Positions 2,458 to 58,446 of a stretch of 64,000 nt of DNA are shown piece by piece. This DNA is from Bacteroidota bacterium (GTDB lineage: Bacteria > Bacteroidota > Bacteroidia > Palsa-948). The notes under the pieces were generated by a model. That model ran no database searches, was not told the origin of the DNA, and saw only the letters and a program-made list of their open reading frames with translations. Both the position numbers and the translations under genes were made by a program. The stretch lies in assembly GCA_016213435.1 (NCBI GenBank), contig JACRAL010000028.1:2196-66195 (forward strand), given 5' to 3'. Position 1 is the first letter of the stretch, and each line of letters starts with the position of its first letter.

Positions 2458-3255
2458 CTACAGGGAGGGAGATGACATGATTAAATTTGTCAATTCCACA
2501 AAATTATTTACGTTAAGTTGTTCAGCACGTTTGGTAAGGAGTTCAGAATTTAATCCTTGAACTTTAAACATTGAACCCAATGAATTTCTGAGTGTTTTTC
2601 TTCTTTGATTAAATCCTGCTTTCACCACTTTGAAAAATAATTGCTCATCGCAGTCTAATCTCTTGACTTCGTTTCTGTTTAACCTAATAACTGCAGATTT
2701 AACATGGGGCGGTGGATTAAATACTTGAGGATTTACGGTAAACAAATATTCTATTTTATAATATGCCTGCATTAATACACTGAGGATCCCGTACGTTTTA
2801 TTGCCTGGAGGTGAAGCAATGCGTTCTGCAACTTCTTTCTGAAACATCCCGATTACTTCAGGAATTTGATTTCTGTATTCAAGAACTTTAAAAAGGATTT
2901 GAGTGGAAATGTTATAAGGGAAATTTCCGATGATGGCAAATGGCAAATGACAGATGGCAGATGGCAGTAAAGCCAGTGTAAAATCCAGAAAATCTTTTTC
3001 GATAATTCTTCCTTCTAATTCAGGAAAACTCTTTTTCAGAAAGGCAATGGATTCTCGGTCGATCTCTACAACATGCGTTTCAAAATACTCTTTTTTCAAG
3101 AGGTATTTTGTAAGTACGCCTGTACCCGGACCTACTTCAATTACAGTTTTATATTTTTCTTTTTCAGAAAGTGATCTTACAATCTTTTTTGCAATATTCT
3201 CATCTTTGAGAAAATGTTGGCCGAGGTGTTTTTTAGGAGTAACGGAATGTGACAT
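2458..3255 (-). CDS. rsmA: 16S rRNA (adenine1518-N6/adenine1519-N6)-dimethyltransferase
   Basis: 'LGQHFL' and 'EVGPGTGVLT' SAM-binding motifs characteristic of KsgA/RsmA; 265 aa. Confidence 0.9.
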   Translation of the reverse strand: MSHSVTPKKHLGQHFLKDENIAKKIVRSLSEKEKYKTVIEVGPGTGVLTKYLLKKEYFETHVVEIDRESIAFLKKSFPELEGRIIEKDFLDFTLALLPSAICHLPFAIIGNFPYNISTQILFKVLEYRNQIPEVIGMFQKEVAERIASPPGNKTYGILSVLMQAYYKIEYLFTVNPQVFNPPPHVKSAVIRLNRNEVKRLDCDEQLFFKVVKAGFNQRRKTLRNSLGSMFKVQGLNSELLTKRAEQLNVNNFVELTNLIMSSPSL

Positions 3256-3551
3256 CAGATAATTTCAAGTACGGTTCGGAAAGCTGCAAATTTATCTTTG
3301 AACTTTTCTTTGTGCTCTTGTTGAAGTTTAGGCGCAAATTCCTTTTGATATGTGTTTAAGTCATCCATCTTTCTGAATGTATATTGTATAGCATAGGTGG
3401 TTTCCAATTCTTCCGTAATAAGTTTACATATTCTGTTATCTACAAAAAATCCGGTTTGCATTACATCCGGAATATGAACTTCCTTCATCCATTTCATCCA
3501 TTCCGCGTGAATAGATTCTTCAATGGTAACAGTTATAGTATAGATATACAT
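3255..3551 (-). CDS. DUF4286-family protein
   Basis: 98 aa with a conserved Bacteroidota small-protein pattern 'YTITV..EE...EW..WM.EVHIP'; overlaps the rsmA start. Confidence 0.55.
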   Translation of the reverse strand: MYIYTITVTIEESIHAEWMKWMKEVHIPDVMQTGFFVDNRICKLITEELETTYAIQYTFRKMDDLNTYQKEFAPKLQQEHKEKFKDKFAAFRTVLEII

Positions 3552-3697
3552 AGAAGCCCCTCTTTATCTCCCCGAAGGGGAGAAACTAAAAAGCCAAAAT
3601 ACAAAATAAAAAAGCGTTGCCTTGCATTTGGATATTATTTTCATTTTAGATATTGAATTTTCTCCTTCCCTTCGGGAAGGGTGGGATGGGCTTTATT

Positions 3698-4177
3698 TCA
3701 GTATCCCATCAGCAGACAGATTGCATAGGCACAAATACCTTCTTCTCTTCCAACAAAGCCCAGATGTTCCGTGGTAGTGGCTTTGATAGAAATATTTTTA
3801 AGTGGAATATGTAAGGTCTCAGCCAGAATATGTTTCATTTCCGGAATGTAGGGAGCGATTTTGGGAGATTCAAGTGTTACGGTACAATCCACATTGCCAA
3901 TTTCATACCCTTGTTTCTTAAGCATTTCTGCAACTTTCTTTAAGAGTTTTTTACTGTCTATCCCTTTAAATTCCTCCGATGTATTTGGGAAATGTGTGCC
4001 AATGTCACCAAGATTTGCTGCGCCAAGAAATGCATCGCACATAGCGTGAATTAATGTATCAGCATCAGAATGACCTTCGGCCCCTTTTGTATGAGGAATT
4101 TTTATTCCACCAAGCCAAAAATCCTGTCCTTCTTTCAGTGGGTGAACATCATAACCGAACCCAACACGTATCTTCAT
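3698..4177 (-). CDS. ispF: 2-C-methyl-D-erythritol 2,4-cyclodiphosphate synthase
   Basis: 'GYDVHPL', 'GHSDADTLIHA' and 'GDIGTHFP' motifs; 159 aa. Confidence 0.9.
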   Translation of the reverse strand: MKIRVGFGYDVHPLKEGQDFWLGGIKIPHTKGAEGHSDADTLIHAMCDAFLGAANLGDIGTHFPNTSEEFKGIDSKKLLKKVAEMLKKQGYEIGNVDCTVTLESPKIAPYIPEMKHILAETLHIPLKNISIKATTTEHLGFVGREEGICAYAICLLMGY

Positions 4178-10603: not shown

Positions 10604-10921
10604 TCAACCTTTCAATTTATTCAACACATCAATATCCGTAGAACCAGTATTTCTATAGATCATTACCAATATTGCTAATCCAACCGCAACTTCCGCAGCG
10701 GCAACTACCATCACGAAGAATACGAATACTTGTCCTGCGGGATCATTCCAATAGGATGAAAATGCCACAAGCAAAAGATTCACCGCATTCAGCATCAACT
10801 CTACCGACATGAAAATGACAATTGCATTTCTGCGGAACAATACTCCCAACACCCCAATGCAAAACAATACCGTGCTTAACAGAATGTAATTGGCAATTGG
10901 TATGCTTTGTATTGTACTCAT
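10604..10921 (-). CDS. nuoK: NADH-quinone oxidoreductase subunit K
   Basis: 105-aa membrane protein with three transmembrane helices; overlaps nuoJ by 4 nt. Confidence 0.85.
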
Positions 10922-11415
10922 TTGATATCACGTTTTCCCAACATTACTGCCCCGACCATAGCCGCAAGAAAAAGCAATGAAGCTGTTTCAAAAGGCAATA
11001 AGAATTGAGTGAATAATACTTGTCCAAGATTTTTTACAAGACCCATATCTGCGTTGGTGGTTGCTGGCGCAGGCAAGGTTTCCGCTCCTTTCATGGCTGC
11101 AACTAATACCACAAGCAAAAGGCCTGCTGAAATAGCAGCGGCAAATTTTACAAGGTTGCTTTTATGAGGTTCGGTTTCCTTGTTAAGATTCAAGAGCATA
11201 ATGACAAACAGGAACAAAACCATGATGGCTCCTGCATAAACCATAATCTGTACAATAAAAAGGAACTGGGCGTTCAGCAAAAGATAATGACCTGCCAGTG
11301 CGAAAAATGTAATGATCAAATATAAAACACTGTGAACCGGATTTTTTTCCAAAATCACCATAAGTCCGCAAAGTATTGCGAGGAAAGCGAGGAAGTAGAA
11401 TAAGTACATTGTCAT
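10918..11415 (-). CDS. nuoJ: NADH-quinone oxidoreductase subunit J
   Basis: 165-aa membrane subunit in conserved nuo order. Confidence 0.85.
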
Positions 11416-11418
11416 ATA

Positions 11419-11454
11419 AAGCCCCTCCTAAATCCTCCCCGTTAGGGAGGACTT
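11419..11454 (-). promoter_or_regulatory. 36-bp GC-rich element: 5'-UTR hairpin + AGGAGGGG (SD-like) immediately upstream of nuoJ start
   Basis: mRNA sense reads AAGUCCUCCCUAACGGGGAGGAUUUAGGAGGGGCUUUAUAUG. An identical copy lies at 12126-12161 before nuoI. Confidence 0.6.
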
Positions 11455-11502
11455 AATACCATTTTTATTATTTATTATTTTCTTTTTCATTTTGCAGTTG
11501 TG

Positions 11503-11539
11503 CCCCGCTTTCTCCTCCCCAGTGGGGAGGTCGGGGCTC
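11503..11539 (-). repeat. Nested GC-rich hairpin immediately 3' of nuoI stop (GAGCCCCGACCUCCCCACUGGGGAGGAGAAAGCGGGGCAC)
   Basis: Two nested inverted repeats (GCCCCG/CGGGGC and CCTCCCC/GGGGAGG); an intra-operon stem-loop. Confidence 0.5.
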
Positions 11540-11540
11540 T

Positions 11541-12122
11541 TTATTTTAATCTGTTATGTTGCAACTCTTTACGCTTTTTAAACTCCAATACTTCTTTTGT
11601 TTGTCTTTGTGAAATATCAACGCGTTTGCTTGCTTCCATGGGTTCTACTAAAAGATCTTTTCCGTAAACAAAACGTTGACGCAAAGAATCTGAAGGAACA
11701 AGCCGGTCAGTAAGAAAGATTGATTCTTTCGGACAGGCATCTTCGCAATCACCGCAAAAAATACAGCGCAGCATATTTATTTCATAGGTAGAAGCATATT
11801 TTTCTTCGCGGTATAATTTTTCTTCTCCCGGTTTTCTTTCAGCAGCTACCATTGTAATGGCTTCAGCAGGACAAGCAACGGCACATAATCCGCAGGCAGT
11901 GCAACGCTCGGCACCATTCTCATCGCGCTTCAGCACGTGCATTCCCCTGTACACAGGAGCAAATGGGCGTTTTACTTCGGGATACTGAAACGTTACTTTC
12001 TTTTTAAAGAAGTGGCCCAGCGTGATTATCATTCCGCCAAAAATTGCAGGCAGATAAATCCTTTCCATAAAGGTCATTCCCTTGTTGCTGACTACTTTAC
12101 TTCTATTTGTTAATGATTGCAT
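11541..12122 (-). CDS. nuoI: NADH-quinone oxidoreductase subunit I (2x[4Fe-4S] ferredoxin)
   Basis: Two CxxCxxCxxxCP motifs ('CTACGLCAVACP', 'CIFCGDCEDACP'). Confidence 0.9.
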   Translation of the reverse strand: MQSLTNRSKVVSNKGMTFMERIYLPAIFGGMIITLGHFFKKKVTFQYPEVKRPFAPVYRGMHVLKRDENGAERCTACGLCAVACPAEAITMVAAERKPGEEKLYREEKYASTYEINMLRCIFCGDCEDACPKESIFLTDRLVPSDSLRQRFVYGKDLLVEPMEASKRVDISQRQTKEVLEFKKRKELQHNRLK

Positions 12123-12125
12123 ATA

Positions 12126-12161
12126 AGCCCCTCCTAAATCCTCCCCGTTAGGGAGGACTTG
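12126..12161 (-). promoter_or_regulatory. Second identical copy of the 36-bp hairpin + SD-like element upstream of nuoI
   Basis: 36/36 identity with 11419-11454; ends 3 nt before the nuoI AUG. Confidence 0.6.
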
Positions 12162-12192
12162 AAATCATTTTAATTATTTATTGTTCTCCCTT

Positions 12193-13221
12193 TCATATTT
12201 TCCCGGTGATCCACATCACAATTCCGGTTATTGCAATATTCAATATCGCCAAAGGTATTAACCCTTTCCATCCTAAATTCATTAGTTGGTCATAGCGGAA
12301 ACGAGGCAATGTCCATCGCACCCACATAAATACAAAGATGAAGAAACATATTTTACAAAAGAGAAAAAATGTTCCAAGCAATGCAAGCATATTCGGATCG
12401 TGAACGAATCTGCCGAGGAACGGCATGTTGTATCCGCCAAAATAAAGTGTAGCAAGTATGGCAGAGGAAATAAACATATTGGTGTATTCGGCAAAAAGAT
12501 AAAAGCCAAGTTTCATAGAAGAATATTCGGTGTGATAACCTCCGATCAATTCGCTTTCGCATTCCGGAAGATCAAAAGGAGCGCGATTGGTTTCAGCAAA
12601 TGCGCAGATGATAAAAATTAAAAATCCAAGCGGTTGATACAAAATATTCCAGTGCCAGCCATGCTGCTGTGCTGCGATCTCACCAATGCTCAGCGTTCCG
12701 GTTGTCATGATGAGCGCGATGATGCTCAGTCCCATTCCGATTTCATAGGAGATCATTTGCGAAGAAGCGCGCAAAGCACCAAGCAATGCAAACTTATTAT
12801 TGGAAGCCCAGCCTCCGATCATGATTCCGTAAACTCCAACCGAAGTTATTCCGAGCAGATAAAGTATTCCGATGTTAACATCAGCCACCTGTAAAGAATA
12901 CTGATGCCCGAGAATTGTAAGTGAAGTTCCCCAGGGAATTATAGCGCCCGTCATTAAAGAAGTGAACATGGCAACGGAGGGCCCGAGGATAAAAAGAAAT
13001 TTATTGGAAACATCCGGGATCATTTCCTCTTTCATGAACATCTTTACGCCATCAGCAACCGGCTGAAGGATTCCGAAAGGACCCGCTCTGTTGGGACCAA
13101 GTCGGTCTTGTATAAATCCGGCAATCTTTCTTTCGGCATAGGTAGAATACATTGCAGCGACAAGCGTAATGCAAAAGACAATGACAACAAGAATTGCTTT
13201 ATATATAATGTATTCGATCAT
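12193..13221 (-). CDS. nuoH: NADH-quinone oxidoreductase subunit H
   Basis: 342-aa polytopic membrane subunit with NuoH/ND1 conservation. Confidence 0.9.
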   Translation of the reverse strand: MIEYIIYKAILVVIVFCITLVAAMYSTYAERKIAGFIQDRLGPNRAGPFGILQPVADGVKMFMKEEMIPDVSNKFLFILGPSVAMFTSLMTGAIIPWGTSLTILGHQYSLQVADVNIGILYLLGITSVGVYGIMIGGWASNNKFALLGALRASSQMISYEIGMGLSIIALIMTTGTLSIGEIAAQQHGWHWNILYQPLGFLIFIICAFAETNRAPFDLPECESELIGGYHTEYSSMKLGFYLFAEYTNMFISSAILATLYFGGYNMPFLGRFVHDPNMLALLGTFFLFCKICFFIFVFMWVRWTLPRFRYDQLMNLGWKGLIPLAILNIAITGIVMWITGKI

Positions 13222-14270: not shown

Positions 14271-14933
14271 CTAATTAATCTTTCCTTCTACAATTAATCC
14301 TTTTATTCCATCATTAAACTTCTTTTTGTTTCCATAAGAAGGATGAGGAACTTTATGGCAATTTATTTTTAATTGTTTCAGAATATCTTCTGCTGCGTTC
14401 CCAACAGCAACTACATTTTTAATCTTATAAAGTTCAAGTAATTTAGTTAAATATTTTTTCCCTATTTCAATCTCTGACTGTGTTGGCTTTCTGTTTTTTT
14501 TAGTATTTGGATCAAATGGATTGTAAGGGAATGCATTCCAAAGTAAAGGGCAAAAATTTAAATTAATAAGTGTATTCCAAACCATAGTCGCAGTTTTTTC
14601 TTTTTGAAGATTCTCGTTCAGTTTTACTGTTTTTCCATTCATTTCTATTTCTTTAGGAAACCCAAACAAATCAAATGAATTTATTTTTGACATAATGTTT
14701 TCACTTGTAAAAGGGATACCTGTAATTGCACATCCATCTTTTCCTGGTGCTTCTCCTACAAATAAAGTTTTTGGTTTTTTTTCTTTCATTTGGGTCAAAT
14801 AAACTAACAAATTCATTCTTGTAGTGAAGTACTGAGGAAAATTATCGTCTTCATGATAAAAATTAAAAACCTTTGACTTATCAACTTTCTGTTTTGATAA
14901 TTGGTCAATGAATTTTTCTATATTTTCTGCCAT
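14271..14933 (-). CDS. Uracil-DNA glycosylase superfamily protein (family 4/5-like motifs, no Fe-S cysteines), inserted between nuoF and nuoG
   Basis: Motif A 'GEAPG' ('VGEAPGKDGCAITGIPF') and motif B 'HPSYGN' near the C-terminus match the UDG-superfamily fold. It is tightly packed between nuoF (end overlaps) and nuoG (4-nt gap). Confidence 0.6.
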   Translation of the reverse strand: MAENIEKFIDQLSKQKVDKSKVFNFYHEDDNFPQYFTTRMNLLVYLTQMKEKKPKTLFVGEAPGKDGCAITGIPFTSENIMSKINSFDLFGFPKEIEMNGKTVKLNENLQKEKTATMVWNTLINLNFCPLLWNAFPYNPFDPNTKKNRKPTQSEIEIGKKYLTKLLELYKIKNVVAVGNAAEDILKQLKINCHKVPHPSYGNKKKFNDGIKGLIVEGKIN

Positions 14934-16273
14934 TATGCTTCCTGCAATTTATTTATCCTATAATAATGCTTCACATCCGTCATGTATTTCCCTTTCTTCA
15001 CATATTCTTCAAACTCGCTTCTGAAATGGCGGATGGCTGCAGCCACAGGCCACGCAGCAGCTTCGCCCAGCGGACAAATTGTTTTGCCTTCAATTTTTCC
15101 TTGTATATCCCAGAGCAGATCAATGTCAGCCATTGTTGCGCGTCCTTCCAGAAATTTATGGAGAATTTTTTCCATCCATCCTGTTCCTTCGCGGCAGGGA
15201 GAACATTGTCCGCAACTTTCATGATGATAGAAGCGTGTGAAGTTCCAGAGATTTTTTACGATGCTGGTATCTTCGTCCATCACAATGAAACCTCCTGAGC
15301 CAAGCATGGTTCCGGTTTGGAAACCTCCTTCAGAAAGTGATTCGTAAGACATTAATCTTGGTTCGCCTTTAGCAGTTTTTAGGATGAGTTCAGCAGGAAG
15401 GATTGGCACCGAAGAACCTCCTGCCACCACTGCTTTCAGTTTTTTTCCATTACGGATTCCTCCGCAATAATCATCGGAATAAATAAATTCTTCTACCGGT
15501 ACTCCGAGTTCAATTTCGTAAACGCCCGGTTTATTAATATGTCCTGAAGCTGAAATTAATTTTGTTCCGGTTGATTTTCCGATCCCGATCTTGGCATATT
15601 CATCACCGCTGTTATTGACGATCCACGCAACATTGGCAAGAGATTCCACATTATTAACTACAGTGGGGCATCCATATAAGCCTACTACAGCAGGAAACGG
15701 AGGTTTGATTCTTGGATTTCCTCTTTTTCCCTCCAGCGATTCGATCAATCCTGTTTCTTCTCCGCAGATGTATGCGCCTGCTCCGCAGTGAACGTGTAGA
15801 TCCAGATCATATCCGCTTCCTAAAATATTTTTTCCGAGATACCCTGCATCGTATGCTTCCTGAATTGCTTTTTCGAGGATATGAAACACATACATCATTT
15901 CTCCTCTTATATATACGTAGGAAGTATTAGCACCCAAAGCAAAAGAAGAAATGATCATACCTTCTATAAGGATATGTGGTTTCTTCTCCATTAAATAACG
16001 ATCCTTGAAAGTTCCAGGCTCAGATTCATCGGCATTGCAAACAAGGTAGCGCGGAACTCCGGGAGGTTTCGCAATGAAACTCCATTTCATTCCCATCGGG
16101 AATCCTGCACCGCCTCTTCCACGAATGCCCGATTTTTTCACCTCTTCTACAATCTCTTCGGGCTTCATCTTCAGCGCTTTTTCAATAGCGGTATATCCGC
16201 CATGCGCTTTGTAACCGGCAAGTGTGTCGATGCCTGCTTTATCTAAATCGTTTATGAGAATCTGTTTACTCAT
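14933..16273 (-). CDS. nuoF: NADH-quinone oxidoreductase subunit F (NADH-binding, FMN, 4Fe-4S)
   Basis: 'GRGGAGFP' FMN/NADH motif and C-terminal 'CGQCSPCREG' 4Fe-4S motif. Confidence 0.9.
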   Translation of the reverse strand: MSKQILINDLDKAGIDTLAGYKAHGGYTAIEKALKMKPEEIVEEVKKSGIRGRGGAGFPMGMKWSFIAKPPGVPRYLVCNADESEPGTFKDRYLMEKKPHILIEGMIISSFALGANTSYVYIRGEMMYVFHILEKAIQEAYDAGYLGKNILGSGYDLDLHVHCGAGAYICGEETGLIESLEGKRGNPRIKPPFPAVVGLYGCPTVVNNVESLANVAWIVNNSGDEYAKIGIGKSTGTKLISASGHINKPGVYEIELGVPVEEFIYSDDYCGGIRNGKKLKAVVAGGSSVPILPAELILKTAKGEPRLMSYESLSEGGFQTGTMLGSGGFIVMDEDTSIVKNLWNFTRFYHHESCGQCSPCREGTGWMEKILHKFLEGRATMADIDLLWDIQGKIEGKTICPLGEAAAWPVAAAIRHFRSEFEEYVKKGKYMTDVKHYYRINKLQEA

Positions 16274-16316
16274 TTAGCCTATCCTAAATCCTTCCCAAAG
16301 GGAAGCATTTTTATTT

Positions 16317-16913
16317 TTATTGATGAATATCCGTATGATGCTTAATTCTTTCTTTTCTCCAGTGAGAAACATCTTCCCCTTTGTTTTTGTATTCGTCCAG
16401 AATAGTATCGCATTTTTCAAAAGTCAGATTCTCGTGATATTTTTCTCCTATCTGCATCATGGGTGCTGTTCCGCAGGATGCAAGGCACTCCACGGTTTTC
16501 AATGTAAACATCCCGTCAGGAGTTGTTTGTCCTTCTTTGATGCCTAATTTTTTTTCGATGAACTTTACCAGATCTTCAGCGCCCATCAGCCAGCAAGGTC
16601 CGGTTCGGCAAACTTCAATTACACATTTGCCAACAGGCTTTAGGTTGAACATGGAATAGAAAGAAGCTACTTCATAAACTTCAACAGGTTGAATCTTCAG
16701 AAGTGTAGCTACGTAATCCATCACTTCAACACTTAACCATCCGTTGAATTCTGCTTGGGCAATATGAAGAATAGGGAGGATGGCAGACTTCTGCCTTTTG
16801 TCCGGATAACGCTTCATTATCTTCTCTGCGAGAGCAAGAGCATCGTCTGAAAATCTCACATGCTTCTTGCCGGAATATTTTGAAGCGGATGGATCCTGTT
16901 GCATAGGCGACAA
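16317..16913 (-). CDS. nuoE: NADH-quinone oxidoreductase subunit E (24 kDa, thioredoxin-like 2Fe-2S)
   Basis: 'CRTGPCW...CLASCGTAP' Cys pattern of NuoE; first gene of the cluster in this window. Confidence 0.85.
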   Translation of the reverse strand: MSPMQQDPSASKYSGKKHVRFSDDALALAEKIMKRYPDKRQKSAILPILHIAQAEFNGWLSVEVMDYVATLLKIQPVEVYEVASFYSMFNLKPVGKCVIEVCRTGPCWLMGAEDLVKFIEKKLGIKEGQTTPDGMFTLKTVECLASCGTAPMMQIGEKYHENLTFEKCDTILDEYKNKGEDVSHWRKERIKHHTDIHQ

Positions 16914-17543: not shown

Positions 17544-20500
17544 ATGAGTAAATACACAGAATATAAAAACCTGAACCTTCCCGAAATAGGAAAGGAAATT
17601 CTTGATCTGTGGGAGAAAAACCACACCTTTGAAAAGAGCGTTACCTCGCGTGAAGGAGCTGAGCCCTTTGTTTTTTATGAAGGACCTCCATCAGCCAACG
17701 GCATGCCCGGCATTCATCACGTGATGGCACGAACCATAAAGGATTTATTCTGCCGTTACCAGACTTTAAAAGGAAAACAGGTAAAACGTAAAGCGGGTTG
17801 GGACACGCACGGGCTTCCGATCGAATTGGCGGTGGAAAAAACCTTAGGCATCACCAAGGAAGACATCGGAAAAAAAATCTCCATTGAAGATTACAACAAG
17901 GCATGCAGGACAGAGGTGATGAAGTATCAGGACAAATGGGAAGAAGTTACCCGTTTGATGGGATATTGGGTGGACATGAAACATCCGTATGTCACTTACG
18001 AAAACAATTACATCGAAAGTGTTTGGTGGCTGCTGAAAAAACTGTACGACAAAAAACTATTATATAAAGGATATACCATTCAGCCGTATTCTCCTGCTGC
18101 GGGAACGGGATTGAGTACGCATGAATTGAACCAACCGGGATGTTACAGGAATGTGAGGGATACGACTGCTGTGGCAATGTTCCGCCTCATCCCCAACCCT
18201 TCTCCGAAGGAGAAGGGAGAAATCCTCTCCTTTGGAGAGGATTTAGGTGAGGCGTATTTTCTTGCGTGGACGACAACTCCTTGGACTCTACCTTCGAATA
18301 CAGCCTTGGCTGTAGGAAAGAACATCAATTATGTTTTGATTGCTACCTTTAATCGTTTTACGTGGAAGAAATGTTTTGTGATTCTCGCGGAGGATTTATT
18401 TGGGAAGTATTTTCAGCGAATTGCAATTATTGGAAATTATACAGAAGAAGAAATTTTCAAAATACAAAACCCGTCTATTGCAGAGGCATTAAACCGCTTA
18501 GACAATCATCCGAAAGAGAAGAGAATTATTAACGGGCACGAATTAATCGGAGTTATTGTCTCAAGATTCACAGGAAAAGATATCGAAGGAATCCACTACG
18601 AACAACTTCTCCCTTTTAAAGCAAATGAAAAAGTGGAGTTGAACGGCAAACTCCTCCCCTTTGGGGAGGCGGGAGGGGCCGTTATTCTTGGAGATTTCGT
18701 TACCACCGAAGACGGAACCGGAATCGTTCACATAGCTCCAAGTTTTGGCGCGGATGACTTTAGAGTTGCGAAACAAAACGGAATTGGTTCGCTTACGCTG
18801 GTTGACAGGCGCGGAAAATTTTTTCCGGAAGTAAGAGATGATGTTTTTCTCTATGGAGACGAGTATGTGAAAGCAGAATATCTCACGGATACAGAAAAGC
18901 AAATTGAATTCCAAAAACAAAAAAAAGTTTTAGAAGCAGCTGGAAAAATTAAAGAACTGAAAGAATATCTAAGCGTTGATGAGCGCATTGTGCTGAAACT
19001 TCAGGAAGAAGGAAAGCTTTTTAAAAAAGAAAAATACGAGCACAGCTATCCTCATTGCTGGCGCACGGACAAACCTATTTTATATTATCCGCTTGACAGT
19101 TGGTTCGTGAAAGTGACTGAGTACAAAGACAGAATGGTAGAACTCAATAAAACCATCAACTGGAAACCGGCACATACAGGTACAGGGCGTTTTGGTGAGT
19201 GGCTGAACAATTTGCAGGATTGGAATTTGTCGCGCTCGCGCTTCTGGGGAATTCCGCTTCCGATCTGGAGAACAGAAGATGGCAAGGAAGAAAAAATTAT
19301 TGGTTCGGTGGATGATTTGAGAAAGGAAGTTAATAAAGCAGTACAGTCTGGTTTTATGAAGGTGTCCCCCTTTGAAGGGAGTGAGGAGGATGTGGATTTA
19401 CACAAACCGTATATCGACAGAGTATTTCTTGTTTCCGATTCAGGGAAAAAAATGACTCGTGAGTCAGATCTGATTGATGTCTGGTTCGATTCAGGCGCAA
19501 TGCCCTATGCTCAATGGCATTATCCGTTCGAAAATAAAGAAATGATTGATTCTCTCCCCTCTCCTGTGGGAGAGGGGTCTGGGGTGAGGCGGACCGGGGC
19601 TGCTTTCCCTGCCGACTTTATTGCAGAAGGAGTTGACCAAACCCGTGGATGGTTTTACACACTTCACGCTATTGCAGCTTTGTGTTTTGATTCGGTCGCT
19701 TATAAAAATGTGCTGAGCAATGGGTTGGTACTTGACAAGAATGGAAACAAGATGAGCAAACGCCTCGGCAATGCCGTTGATCCGTTCTCCACGCTTGAAA
19801 AATATGGTCCCGATGCGGTGCGCTGGTACATGGTCACAAATGCCGATCCTTGGGATAATTTAAAATTTGATTTGGAAGGAGTAGCAGAAAAGCAAAGAAG
19901 TTTTTTCGGAACGCTTTATAATACCTATGCTTTCTTTGCCCTTTATGCGAACATTGACAATTTCTCTTTTAAAGAAAAAGAAATTCCATTAAAAGACAAA
20001 CCCGAAATTGACCGATGGATTTTGTCAGAACTCAATTCGCTGATAAAATCGGTGGATGAAAGTTACAGCAGTTATGAGCCAACAAAAGCAGGCAGAGCGA
20101 TCGAAACTTTTGTGGACGAGCATTTGAGTAATTGGTATGTTCGTTTGTGCAGAAGGAGATTCTGGAAAGGAGAATACACACAGGATAAAATTTCTGCTTA
20201 TCAAACCTTATATCGTTGTCTGGAAGTGGTTGCGCAGCTTTCTTCGCCTATTGCACCTTTCTTCTGCGAGAAATTATTTAAAGACCTGAACGATATAACC
20301 GGAAGACAGAAAGCGGAGAGCGTGCATCTGAGTTTATTTCCAAAGATGGATGAGAGCTCTATTGATAAACCGCTGGAAGAGAGAATGGAAATAGCTCAGA
20401 AAATTTCTTCGATGATTCTTTCTATCCGGAAAAAGGAAAATATCCGTGTTCGTCAGCCACTTACAAAGATTCGAGTTCCGATATTGGATGATTCGTTCAA

Positions 20501-22816: not shown

Positions 22817-23452
22817 ATGGCGAAGCCAAAGCCAAAATACTACGTAGTCTGGAAAGGAAAAGAGCCGGGTATTTTTGATTCCTGGGATACGTGCAAGAAG
22901 CAAATCCAAAATTTTACAGGGGCACAATACAAATCCTTTAAAACAAAGGAAGCAGCAGAAAGCGCATTTAAATTATCATACAAAGATGCTATCATCTCAC
23001 CCCTCACTCCCCTCTCCACGAGGAGAGGGGAAGAGGGAGAGGTGGTTGGTTATCCCATGCTCGAAAGCATCTCTGTAGATGCCGCTTTTAACGGAAAGGT
23101 AATGGAGTACAAAGGCGTTTACACCAAAACAAAACAAGAACTATTCAAGCTGGGTCCTTTTGAAGATGCAACAAATAATATCGGGGAATTCCTCGCTATC
23201 GTGCATGCCTTGGGTTATCTGAAAAAACAGCACAGCACGGTTCCCGTTTATTCCGACAGTGTTACAGCCATCCACTGGGTGAAAACGCATAAGGCAAACA
23301 CCAAACTAAAAGAAACCCCTGCAAACAAATCTCTTTTCTTTCTTATTGAAAGAGCGGAAAAGTGGTTAAGCCAGAATAAATACCCTAATAAACTCCTCAA
23401 GTGGGAGACAAAAGCATGGGGAGAGAACCCTGCTGACTTTGGCAGGAAGTAA
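22817..23452 (+). CDS. rnhA: Ribonuclease HI with N-terminal RNA/DNA hybrid-binding domain (Cauli_VI-type)
   Basis: N-terminal 'YYVVWKGKEPGIFDSWDTCKKQIQNFTGAQYKSFKTKEAAESAF' hybrid-binding domain, then an RNase H catalytic core (D..E..D..D). A GC-rich palindromic insert lies in the linker. Confidence 0.8.
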   Translation: MAKPKPKYYVVWKGKEPGIFDSWDTCKKQIQNFTGAQYKSFKTKEAAESAFKLSYKDAIISPLTPLSTRRGEEGEVVGYPMLESISVDAAFNGKVMEYKGVYTKTKQELFKLGPFEDATNNIGEFLAIVHALGYLKKQHSTVPVYSDSVTAIHWVKTHKANTKLKETPANKSLFFLIERAEKWLSQNKYPNKLLKWETKAWGENPADFGRK

Positions 23453-56517: not shown

Positions 56518-58446
56518 CTATTTAGGCAAGGATGAATTTTGTTGTGCCGAATTCAAAGCGGCTCTTGCTTTCTGAAGGTTGCCTGCAATATTTTTGTTGT
56601 TCGGATTCAACTGAAGTGCTTTCTCATAGTACGAAACAGCAGTTTTATAGTCCCCAAGGTTATGATTGATCGCCCCAAGATTCCCAAGCGCATCCGGATT
56701 ATTTGCATCATATTGGATTGCCTGCAGAAAATATTTTTTAGCCGACTCATAATCTTTGCGTTCAAAATAGATCACTCCGAGGTTATTTGCAGCAGAGGTA
56801 TAATCAGGCGAAACTTTTAGAGTCTGCTCGTAAACCTTCTCAGCGTTTTCCCTGTCTCCCATTCCATAATAGCAAACACCGGCATTGTAAAGTGCTTCCG
56901 TATTGTCAGGTAAAATCTCAATTGCTTTTTTATAATATGCAATTGCTTTTTGAAAAAGAGCAGATCGTTTGTTGGGAACCGGTTCTTTTTCCGCGAGTTC
57001 TCGATAGGAAGAACCGAGCGCACTTTCCGCCCTTGAACTTTTAGGAGTTGCTTCAACTCCTGATGCAAAAAGCGAGAAATTATCTTTCCAGTCTTTGTTG
57101 CGGTTAAATGTTTTGAAGGAGAACAACGCAAGGACAACAAACAAAATGATGCCCCGACCCTGAAGGGAGAAGAAGGAACTGCGATTGCTCCCTTTAGGGT
57201 TGGGGCAAATCACTACTGCAACAGCAATACAAAACGCCAATGACGGAGTGAACAAAAACCGTTCTCCCAGCGTTGCACCGATCATGATGAAGATGTTTGA
57301 TACCACCGACATCGTAACAAAAAAAAACAAAATGCAGTAAGCATAAACAGCCATTGCTGATTGCTGATTTCTGGTCTCTGGTTTTCTGAGCAATTGGACT
57401 AAAAAATGTAAAGAATAAATTCCAAGTACGGCAAACACACACAATATGAGAATAACTTTAATATCCGAGAAAGAAACAATCGGTATTTGATTGAAAGAAT
57501 AATCCCACGAAAGGGGATGAGGAAAAAATAAAAGCAGAATATATTTTCCAAGAATTAAAAGCGCAGTGGCTATCCTGTCTGAACCGTTTGTAGCTGCAGC
57601 CAGTGCGTTGTTCACCACTTTCATTTTCTCAGCAAAAGTTACGGTCTCAAGCACCGAACTTCGTATAACCATATAAACTCCGAATGCAGCAGCAAAAGAG
57701 ATCATGCCGAGTCCGATTTTTTTCAAAGGAACACTTCGAAAAAAAAATATCGTCAGCGGGATAATCGCAAGAAATGTTACCGCCATTTCTTTGCAAAGAA
57801 GAGAGAGAAAGAAGAACAGAACGCTCAAAAAGAAATATTTTTTAAAACCCGTATCAATATGTTTAAGGATGAAAAGAAGTACGAACTCAAAAAAAATAAA
57901 GTTCAATATGTCGTCTCTGCCTTTTATGTTTGCCACTGCTTCGGTGTGAATGGGATGAGCAGCAAAAAGCAAGGTGATGACCAGAGGAATGACCTCACCC
58001 CCAACCCCTCTCCCAAAGGAGAGGGGAGAAGATTTCTCGTTAAACAATTGTTTCATCAAACGAAAAAGTAAAACACACGACAATGCAAATAACAAAACAT
58101 TTATAAAATGCCCCGTATGCGGATTATTTTCAAAAAAATGTTTTTCGATTGCAAAAATGACAGACACCACAGGGCGGTAGGACTGATCATTATGCCCCGT
58201 GAAACCGTAAATAAAACTATGATGGAGAATACTTGGTATGCCGCTCAATCCCGCCTGAACATCTTTGTTCTTCAAATACACCACATCGTCATCCAGCACA
58301 TAGCCGTGGTTCAGCGTGTTTGCGTAAAGCAAAAATGCAAAAGCAAAAACAATAAATGAAAGTAAACGGTCTTTTGTGGAAAGAGAAGGCTTGTTTGCAG
58401 GTCGGGATTTAAAATCCCGACCAACTGACTTCTTTTTTTTGTTCAT
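56518..58446 (-). CDS. Multi-pass membrane protein with C-terminal TPR repeats (TMTC/PMT_2-like glycosyltransferase-type architecture)
   Basis: ~11 transmembrane helices, then at least four TPR motifs ('ALYNAGVCYYGMGD', 'AANNLGVIYFERKDY', 'ALGNLGAINHNLGDY'). The CDS contains two in-frame GC-rich palindromic inserts. Confidence 0.7.
   Translation of the reverse strand: MNKKKKSVGRDFKSRPANKPSLSTKDRLLSFIVFAFAFLLYANTLNHGYVLDDDVVYLKNKDVQAGLSGIPSILHHSFIYGFTGHNDQSYRPVVSVIFAIEKHFFENNPHTGHFINVLLFALSCVLLFRLMKQLFNEKSSPLSFGRGVGGEVIPLVITLLFAAHPIHTEAVANIKGRDDILNFIFFEFVLLFILKHIDTGFKKYFFLSVLFFFLSLLCKEMAVTFLAIIPLTIFFFRSVPLKKIGLGMISFAAAFGVYMVIRSSVLETVTFAEKMKVVNNALAAATNGSDRIATALLILGKYILLLFFPHPLSWDYSFNQIPIVSFSDIKVILILCVFAVLGIYSLHFLVQLLRKPETRNQQSAMAVYAYCILFFFVTMSVVSNIFIMIGATLGERFLFTPSLAFCIAVAVVICPNPKGSNRSSFFSLQGRGIILFVVLALFSFKTFNRNKDWKDNFSLFASGVEATPKSSRAESALGSSYRELAEKEPVPNKRSALFQKAIAYYKKAIEILPDNTEALYNAGVCYYGMGDRENAEKVYEQTLKVSPDYTSAANNLGVIYFERKDYESAKKYFLQAIQYDANNPDALGNLGAINHNLGDYKTAVSYYEKALQLNPNNKNIAGNLQKARAALNSAQQNSSLPK

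Follow-up and report, generated by a model that had tools for sequence, protein, structure and literature searches.

Hairpin and purine-tract modules in front of nuoJ and nuoI as probable units of a Bacteroidota repeat family of the BoxC/PIT triplex-motif type

The potential intrastrand triplex (PIT) elements of Escherichia coli, also termed BoxC, reportedly go back to Hoyne and Maher (2000), and triplex motifs of this kind have been studied mainly in enterobacteria and cyanobacteria. Here, we addressed a set of short modules located in a 64,000-nucleotide (nt) window, that is the whole stretch analyzed, of contig JACRAL010000028.1 (positions 2,196 to 66,195 of the forward strand; assembly GCA_016213435.1, Bacteroidota bacterium, lineage Palsa-948). 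The modules combine a hairpin with a purine tract resembling a Shine-Dalgarno (SD) sequence and stand in front of the nuo operon genes nuoJ, nuoI, and nuoF as well as a DUF4286 gene. A reading made from the letters of the window (hereafter the sequence-only reading) had regarded them as a conserved control module of the 5′ untranslated region (5′-UTR). We propose, with a probability of roughly 80%, that the modules are individual units of a dispersed DNA repeat and that this repeat is a Bacteroidota member of the BoxC/PIT/triplex-motif (TM) family.

According to Holder et al. (2015), the E. coli elements, designated TMECO, belong to the class II purine-motif intrastrand triplex motifs and have a second loop of 3 nt that is of TTA or CCG type; strain K-12 contains 23 copies, frequently in inverted pairs whose two units differ, and the motif itself is found in more than 260 genomes (PMC4666352). 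They are associated with local genomic instability and show neither promoter nor terminator activity (PMC4666352). The paper does not treat Bacteroidota, and its supplements give per-genome counts only. The window family shares with these elements the order of parts (pyrimidine arm, loop 1 of 3–6 nt, purine arm, 3-nt loop 2, and reverse-Hoogsteen arm), the triads, among them T facing one arm A as a characteristic trait, and second loops of both TTA and CCG type; it is likewise multicopy, contains inverted pairs of unlike units, displays no strand or gene-class preference, and has no known mobilizing gene. TMECO no. 1 (E. coli sequence from Table 1 of PMC4666352) coincides with the unit at 19556 of the window in 30 of 37 aligned columns, in shifted register, and with the nuoJ module in 20–22 of 36. 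The TMECO consensus CCCTCNCCC-N3-6-GGGNGAGGG-N3-GGGNGAGGG, having 9-nt stems, is matched exactly neither in the window nor in the compared loci L001–L128; thus the family is to be assigned to the same structural kind and to a related sequence superfamily, and not to TMECO in the strict sense. It further differs from TMECO by a conserved GCT(T) terminus, by the exclusive use of the GGAGG spelling beside start codons, by copies residing inside coding sequences (CDSs), whereas the E. coli elements are “always intergenic”, and by ends lying a few nt from start or stop codons, whereas TMECO has no preferred distance within 10–310 nt (PMC4666352).

In the mRNA (minus) sense the modules of nuoJ and nuoI read UCCUCCC-UAACG-GGGAGGA-UUU-AGGAGGG-GCUU. 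Both contain the identical 36-mer AAGCCCCTCCTAAATCCTCCCCGTTAGGGAGGACTT reported by the sequence-only reading, at 11419–11454 as given there and, for the second copy, at 12125–12160 instead of 12126–12161, an offset of one position. The distance from the 36-mer to AUG amounts to 2–3 nt (UAU-AUG for nuoJ and AU-AUG for nuoI), not 3–5 nt, and the end of the tract lies 1–3 nt from AUG, not 1–8 nt as proposed. Similarity between the two copies extends to 75 nt with 88% identity (11419–11493 versus 12125–12199). No direct repeat of the window is longer than this pair (family D1), which covers nearly the whole nuoH-nuoI spacer; that spacer and the right part of the nuoI-nuoJ element described below share 88% identity. 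Related modules in front of nuoF and the DUF4286 gene are present as described there, akin to the first two without being identical: the former is a degenerate copy, CUUCCC-UUU-GGGAAG-GAUUU-AGGAUAGGCUA-A-AUG, and the latter reads UCUCCCC-UUC-GGGGAGA-UAA-AGAGGGG-CUUCU-AUG. The identities of all genes were borne out by Pfam. Taken alone, AGGGGCTT is not significant in the window, with 3 matches versus 1.65 expected and 24 of 100 shuffles reaching 3. The composite module pattern matches 3 times versus 0 in 100 shuffles, and a triplex-rule finder returns 16 matches corresponding to about 12 distinct units versus 0–1 in 20 shuffles. RNA folding, recommended as a check by the sequence-only reading and carried out with ViennaRNA, whose model covers Watson-Crick pairs and hence the hairpin part of a unit, yielded a hairpin of about -19 kcal/mol and an unpaired purine tract when each short UTR was folded alone.

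The feature uniting the units becomes apparent on the purine-rich strand, where a pyrimidine arm, a loop of 3–5 nt, a complementary purine arm, a second loop usually of 3 nt (101 of 148 units; TTT, TTA, TTG, TCG, or CCG), a third purine arm, and GCT(T) follow each other; ends of the type (A)AGCCCC / GGGGCT(T) were found in 136 units. In every subfamily the third arm mirrors the second one, being neither its complement nor its copy (GGGGAGG/GGAGGGG, GGGGAGA/AGAGGGG, GGGGGAG/GAGGGGG, GGAGGGG/GGGGAGG, and GGGAAGG/GGATGGG). Among 208 pyrimidine/purine hairpins outside pattern selection, a mirrored third segment 1–7 nt 3′ of the purine arm accompanies 88 (50 of them perfect), and a direct-repeat third segment accompanies 26 (5 perfect). 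Mismatches in the third arm are T opposite arm A in 27 cases out of 38. When the diagnostic position was left free in the metagenome scan, it was occupied among the matches listed by A in 62 units, T in 61, C in 1, and G in none, as A.A-T and T.A-T triads allow exactly A and T. Hairpin polarity is nearly uniform (393 pyrimidine-first versus 4 purine-first; 11 versus 0 in the window), and more than 30 different arm sequences comply with the mirror rule together with the A/T alternation. The antiparallel purine-motif triple helix follows a rule of such mirror symmetry, with G.G, A.A, and T.A correspondences.

Single-stranded DNA of a unit would fold back twice, giving rise to a class II purine-motif triplex built from G.G-C, A.A-T, and T.A-T triads. 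The hairpin of the sequence-only reading corresponds to arms 1 and 2, its A/U spacer to loop 2, and its “SD-like tract” to the reverse-Hoogsteen third arm, the tract probably existing for that reason. Purine-motif triplexes cannot form in RNA (PMC4666352), and since this is so the DNA fold is taken as the presumably selected state. It is expected from the TM assignment that the oligonucleotide d(TCCTCCCTAACGGGGAGGATTTAGGAGGG) and its AGGTGGG variant give triplex signatures. Other conserved states were considered and rejected. A pyrimidine-motif, RNA-capable triplex on the C-rich strand conflicts with T variants, which put A opposite an A-T pair (rule in PMC4666352), and a G-quadruplex reading of GGGGAGG-TTA-GGAGGGG leaves the A/T alternation and the need for a C-rich arm unexplained. 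A conserved hairpin/SD switch, as suggested from alternate pairing of the hairpin with the tract, does not hold either: the tract mirrors the purine arm and is not complementary to it, while T variants, represented by GGTGG instead of GGAGG in half of one subfamily among the matches listed, break any alternative helix.

Two spacers of the window are each occupied by one full element, in which two units are inverted to each other, the ends form inverted repeats, and the whole interval from stop codon to start codon is filled. The nuoI-nuoJ element consists of a left unit, an A/T-rich core, and the right unit 11419–11454, and its ends are the inverted repeats ATAAAGaGCCCC ... GGGGCTTTAT. The left unit is degenerate, reading ATAAAGAGCCCCGA-CCTCCCC-ACT-GGGGAGG-AGAAAG-CGGGGC on the minus strand (11504–11543) and GCCCCG-CTTTCT-CCTCCCC-AGT-GGGGAGG-T-CGGGGCTCTTTAT on the plus strand (11504–11545), where it overlaps the nuoI stop codon. 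The ispF-DUF4286 element has the same anatomy as the nuo elements; on the plus strand its segment 3663–3697 carries GGATGGG and then CTTTAT adjoining the ispF stop codon, and its left unit shares 32 of 33 positions with the left unit of a two-unit element from another nuo operon (L004). RNA of both spacers folds with paired ends, at -50.3 kcal/mol (z = -5.6) for nuoI-nuoJ and -47.4 kcal/mol (z = -4.0) for ispF-DUF4286, so that in mRNA the paired ends would bring the upstream stop and downstream start codons together. Units also reside inside open reading frames (ORFs), including a compact full element within the CDS of isoleucyl-tRNA synthetase (IleRS), one unit of which, 18223–18252, reads TCCTCTCC-TTT-GGAGAGGA-TTT-AGGTGAGG and repeats the three-segment plan and the TTT loop 2 of the nuoJ module. 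The earlier suggestion that the modules represent the intergenic face of a palindromic-element family found inside CDSs is thereby supported. All positions are compiled in Table 1.

Table 1. Coordinates of genes, triplex-motif (TM) units, and full elements in the 64,000-nt window (Y, pyrimidine; R, purine; RH, reverse-Hoogsteen)
Feature	Position	Strand	Remark
DUF4286 gene	3255-3551	minus	Pfam
ispF	3698-4177	minus	Pfam
nuoJ	10918-11415	minus	Pfam
nuoI	11541-12122	minus	Pfam
nuoH	12193-13221	minus	Pfam
nuoF	14933-16273	minus	Pfam
nuoE	16317-16913	minus	Pfam
TM unit before nuoJ	11423-11451	minus	G.G-C / A.A-T triads, zero mismatches
nuoJ unit, Y arm	11451-11445	minus	TCCTCCC
nuoJ unit, loop 1	11444-11440	minus	TAACG
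nuoJ unit, R arm	11439-11433	minus	GGGAGGA
nuoJ unit, loop 2	11432-11430	minus	TTT
nuoJ unit, RH arm	11429-11423	minus	AGGAGGG, the “SD-like tract”
nuoJ unit, downstream	11422-11419	minus	GCTT, then TAT and ATG (11415-11413)
TM unit before nuoI	12129-12157	minus	sequence identical to nuoJ unit
nuoI unit, RH arm	12135-12129	minus	then GCTT (12128-12125), AT, and ATG (12122-12120)
nuoI-nuoJ spacer	11416-11543	minus	whole spacer is one full element
nuoH-nuoI spacer	12123-12192	minus	70 nt; solo unit and A/T-rich inner segment
nuoE-nuoF spacer	16274-16316	minus	43 nt; with degenerate solo unit
nuoF degenerate unit	16278-16305	minus	CTTCCC-TTT-GGGAAG-GATTTAG-GATAGG; 6-nt stem, 1 mismatch
ispF-DUF4286 spacer	3552-3697	minus	whole spacer is one full element
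ispF-DUF4286, start-proximal unit	3557-3583	minus	TCTCCCC-TTC-GGGGAGA-TAA-AGAGGGG
ispF-DUF4286, stop-proximal unit	3664-3690	plus	CCTTCCC-TTC-GGGAAGG-GTG-GGATGGG
Compact full element in IleRS CDS	18185-18252		units 18185-18217 (minus) and 18223-18252 (plus)
Solo TM unit in IleRS CDS	18653-18678	plus	CCTCCCC-TTT-GGGGAGG-CG-GGAGGGG
Solo TM unit in IleRS CDS	19556-19589	plus	CCCCTCTCC-TGTG-GGAGAGGGG-TCT-GGGGTGAGG
TM hairpin in ORF 22817-23452	22995-23042		RH-type arms on both sides
TM unit in ORF 56518-58446	57993-58026	minus	CCCCTCTCC-TTTG-GGAGAGGGG-TTG-GGGGTGAGG

The nearest NuoI homologues belong to uncultured Bacteroidota, and comparison with their nuo operons does not support the description of the modules as conserved, since the nearest relatives lack them. 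In loci with 92% (L001–L003) and 87% (L007 and L008) NuoI identity, the nuoH-nuoI spacer is 5 nt long (TGA-CATTG-ATG) and the nuoI-nuoJ spacer 18 nt, while nuoE and nuoF of L007 overlap (ATAATG); BLAST alignments of the window with these relatives break exactly at gene boundaries. As the genes of the closest relatives overlap at these junctions or are separated by 5 or 18 nt, the modules are to be regarded as lineage-specific insertions, and the sequence comparison indicates that units were recently inserted in this lineage into the formerly tiny nuoE-nuoF, nuoH-nuoI, and nuoI-nuoJ junctions. In the more distant L004 (76% DNA identity), an independent element of two units, with arms of different sequence, is confined to the nuoI-nuoJ spacer. 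In L005 the same spacer contains an unrelated 66-nt A/T-rich palindrome (1648–1713, GACAATAGACAGTA...TACTGTCTAC). Structured inserts have come to occupy the nuoI-nuoJ junction on three or more separate occasions. TA is readable at both ends of some copies, and the flanks are A/T-rich; the spacers of relatives are too diverged for an empty site to be recognized, and no target-site duplication is definable between the window and its relatives, the ancestral spacers (e.g., CTGAATAG) being simply missing. The copies probably spread while the DNA was single-stranded.

Scanning of species-representative genomes with the unit pattern returned at least 120 loci, of which about 110 among the matches listed belong to Bacteroidota (Flavobacteriales, Chitinophagales, Bacteroidales, Cytophagales, and Sphingobacteriales); the nuoJ/nuoI-subfamily pattern returned at least 120 loci from metagenomes as well. 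The repeat family is phylum-wide in Bacteroidota. Placement of 185 units among the matches listed by a rule-based finder combined with crude ORF calls assigned 50 outer ends to stop codons, 35 to start codons, 39 units to the interior of long open frames, and 61 elsewhere, and solo units listed stand 16 times beside starts versus 20 times beside stops, without orientation bias. Since ends at stops outnumber those at starts and many units lie inside CDSs, the motif is not specifically a start-codon feature; the start-codon enrichment anticipated by the sequence-only reading is largely contradicted by this random orientation and excess of stops. Inverted pairs, 51 among the matches listed, measure 65–270 nt and have AGCCCC...GGGGCT ends like terminal inverted repeats. 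Near-identical 41-nt copies recur in unrelated contigs, e.g., L128. Other signals were scarce: Rfam at its gathering threshold recognized only a tRNA, and its permissive scan gave only chance miRNA-precursor-like matches across whole elements, owing to the long hairpins these form; no promoter-like or terminator-like signal exceeded shuffles, no Bacteroidota -7 box (TAnnTTTG) was seen by eye in the two nuo spacers, and a search of a literature library with the exact sequences found no matching paper.

The single aspect pointing to a role in translation is the spelling of the third arm next to start codons. The host is SD-poor, as had been assumed, with a median predicted SD:anti-SD energy of -0.5 kcal/mol for 56 crude gene calls in the window, among which no gene other than nuoJ and nuoI, both at -10.7, reaches -8 kcal/mol or less. 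The comparison by position used units whose purine arm has a single internal A, so that the third arm admits either A or T, with the caveat that gene calls are crude and contigs may be mutually related. Among the matches listed, units 0–12 nt upstream of the ATG of a long ORF have A in 39 cases and T in none (36 loci), versus 166 A and 88 T in all other units (p = 3e-7); for the nuoJ-type subfamily the ratios are 13/0 at starts versus 48/60 elsewhere (p = 1.2e-4). Partner status and loop type fail to explain this bias, T variants return once ATG is 15 nt away or more, GGAGG is separated from ATG by 4–8 nt, and the genes downstream are diverse, including nuoK (L150). Because the GGAGG-keeping spelling alone is found beside starts, the tract probably matters for initiation, and selection on it at the level of translation is likely. 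In mRNA, a purine tract exposed immediately ahead of AUG would follow a stable hairpin. Avoidance of an upstream GUG probably does not account for all of the A bias; at the most frequent spacing GUG would stand in frame, and the GGAUGGG subfamily is tolerated beside starts despite its upstream AUG. Thus the idea of a dedicated 5′-UTR control module does not stand as the primary explanation of what is a repeat unit, and its SD component persists, in view of the A-only bias, as a plausible secondary exaptation of the tract.

Whether translation could nevertheless be the primary cause, with the repeat serving only as a vehicle, was considered next to other origins. A device in which the hairpin exposes GGAGG at canonical spacing, or switches with it, would be read by Bacteroidia ribosomes with a free anti-SD, e.g., those lacking bS21; this agrees with the 39/0 and 13/0 counts at starts, the return of T variants from 15 nt onward, the 4–8 nt spacing, the tract being unpaired in short-UTR folds, and nuoJ and nuoI being the sole strong SD matches among 56 window genes. 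It also recalls rpsU of Bacteroidia, a case of bS21 autoregulation with a GGAGG-type tract at SD spacing in an otherwise SD-blind lineage (PMC9976891, PMC13000453), and ribosomes of Flavobacterium johnsoniae without bS21 translate strong-SD reporters better (PMC9976891). The tract of the window, however, is supplied by a repeat and not orthologously conserved, its predicted pairing of -10.7 kcal/mol falls short of the values below -13 kcal/mol of rpsU sequences (PMC9976891), and Bacteroidia ribosomes are blind to SD in vitro (PMC7797042, PMC13000453), the literature describing this blindness as lifted where bS21 is missing (PMC7797042, PMC9976891, PMC13000453). The GGGAAGG subfamily, whose third arm GGATGGG is devoid of GGAGG, still stands beside starts in 7–9 cases among the matches listed, the closest relatives operate the same nuo genes without any module, and more unit ends adjoin stops than starts, with many units inside CDSs. 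Moreover, the U variant requires about 1.4 kcal/mol more to open positions -12 to +12, so an identical bias would result from selection for a start region free of structure, and under a stricter definition of starts the contrast weakens to 11/61 versus 1–3/60. A primary initiation device is judged unlikely, and the same holds for the proposal that start-adjacent TM repeats are kept only as GGAGG because the tract is read, e.g., by bS21-free or anti-SD-exposed ribosomes. An mRNA element tuning subunit stoichiometry of the nuo operon, as stabilizer, processing site, attenuator, or stop/start coupler, seems improbable and the least probable of the explanations weighed here. The nuoI-nuoJ junction is indeed repeatedly occupied (TM elements with different arms in the window and L004, the unrelated palindrome in L005), a TM unit directly precedes nuoK in L150, paired ends place the nuoI stop and nuoJ start at the base of one helix, and REP hairpins are able to affect mRNA stability (PMC3733652); yet the closest relatives are devoid of a hairpin at each of the three junctions, the same units accompany many unrelated genes and CDS interiors, no terminator-like tail was detected, and E. 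coli PIT elements lack promoter and terminator activity (PMC4666352).

Bacterial MITEs (transposable elements of miniature size with inverted repeats) and other palindromic elements, such as Correia, ERIC, and Rickettsia palindromic elements (RPEs), are known to lie near or in genes. An ordinary element of this or of REP/REPIN type, mobilized in trans by a DDE or HUH (RAYT/IS200-like) transposase that recognizes the hairpin and terminal AGCCCC and requires no triplex, would reduce the mirror symmetry to a by-product of recognition or descent. MITEs are resembled in the length of 65–270 nt, the inverted-repeat-like ends AGCCCC...GGGGCT, the long RNA hairpin of whole spacers (seen by Rfam only as weak miRNA-precursor-like matches), and insertion into operon spacers (background in part in PMC3733652), RPEs in the copies inside ORFs. 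REP/BIME/REPIN sequences are resembled as short G+C-rich palindromes occurring in transcribed operon spacers singly and as inverted doublets; they frequently abut the ends of ORFs or overlap them, are able to provide stop codons, and in some cases reside inside ORFs (PMC3733652). The near-identical 41-nt copies in unrelated contigs and an outer flank with 48–61% A at positions -2 to -4 versus 29%, suggestive of target preference, would fit as well. Nonetheless, a mirror repeat is meaningless for recognition of double strand or hairpin, yet it holds over more than 30 arm sequences; this unit-internal rule is no MITE feature, the third arm is missing from REPs, and their GTAG or CGTC tag (definition in PMC3733652) is missing from the window family. 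No target-site duplication is definable, no insertion sequence could be named as parent, the 240 loci, for which no systematic search was made, revealed no parent element with a transposase, and E. coli BoxC is likewise unlinked to mobile elements (PMC4666352). Such an origin without a triplex is assessed as somewhat less likely than a primary initiation device and more likely than an operon-specific mRNA element.

Several points weigh against the assignment to the BoxC/PIT/TM family. The triplex is deduced from covariation and the E. coli precedent, and even for TMECO it formed in vitro, as monitored by circular dichroism and nuclear magnetic resonance, and was not detected in vivo by dimethyl sulfate footprinting (PMC4666352). 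Stems comprise 7 nt in the nuo-associated subfamily versus 9 nt in E. coli, and the nuoI-nuoJ left unit as well as the nuoF unit obey the triplex rule poorly. Unit ends mostly lie 0–10 nt from gene boundaries, nearer than random intergenic insertion predicts, and the A-only bias beside starts implies that the tract there is not functionally inert. No mobilizing enzyme, target-site duplication, or clean pair of empty and filled sites was found, so mobility is deduced from distribution alone. Finally, the loci were picked by our own patterns, and gene calls followed crude ORF rules.

Apart from these lines of argument, some observations on the repeats deserve mention. The outer flank of units is A-rich as given above relative to the 29% background, and overlap of the element end with the stop codon TAA is frequent (TAAAGCCCC). 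Units are also arrayed head to tail, repeating about every 42 nt, in L232 (three copies) and in L059 and L082 (two each). In three Flavobacteriaceae loci (L051, L053, and L121) start-proximal units have a second conserved hairpin on the inner side (AACTCTTACTYGGGCG...AAGAGT), which suggests a longer composite element, and one Pirellulaceae metagenome-assembled genome (MAG) of Planctomycetota contains a repeated unit of its own, AGCCCCTCCCCAGCCCTCCCCGAAGCGGGGAGGG, at three loci (L063, L073, and L081), so related triplex-type families exist outside Bacteroidota. IleRS of the window is 1196 aa long with three TM insertions within; in a MAG contig of Bacteroidia ELA109 (L072), whose IleRS gene is 66–72% identical to that of the window, a unit at about 3001–3031 falls into the alignment gap matching window positions 19514–19596, the same insertion site being occupied in both. 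Around the nuo genes, a uracil-DNA-glycosylase-superfamily (UDG) gene (PF03167) lies between nuoF and nuoG in the window (14271–14933, minus strand) and likewise in L007 (2326–3006), not in L004; the nuoF-UDG spacer of L007 (2081–2326) contains a purine-rich tandem repeat GAGGAGGGAAATACCGATTAA in about 3–4 copies, absent from the window. A bAvd/23S-rRNA-intervening-sequence-protein gene (PF05635, PF22296), also absent from the window, is situated just upstream of nuoH in L001 (667–1020) and L002 (563–916). Elsewhere, the region from about 32000 to 56000 of the window, with positive AT skew of 0.16–0.27 and packed same-strand ORFs including one of 2126 aa, followed by a tRNA gene at 56353–56440, may be an integrated mobile element.

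Thus an apparently special 5′-UTR motif can be re-read as the end of a repeat family, which is a warning against annotation of such sequences in Bacteroidota as ribosome-binding sites or riboswitch-like devices. BoxC/PIT triplex motifs appear to be abundant across this phylum in dozens of arm sequences, all keeping the mirror and A/T rule. A comparable analysis of arm sequences was not found in PMC4666352, where the copies of E. coli hardly differ among themselves, and the diversity of arms under the mirror rule may be considered as comparative evidence for selection on a fold-back DNA structure. If the GGAGG spelling beside starts were indeed kept because ribosomes read it, SD-dependent genes, in this case those for NuoI and NuoJ, would arise again and again through a selfish DNA repeat, which would tie their translation to ribosome composition. 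The absence of GGTGG beside starts offers a cheap handle on whether SD-like sequences matter in a phylum considered “SD-blind”.

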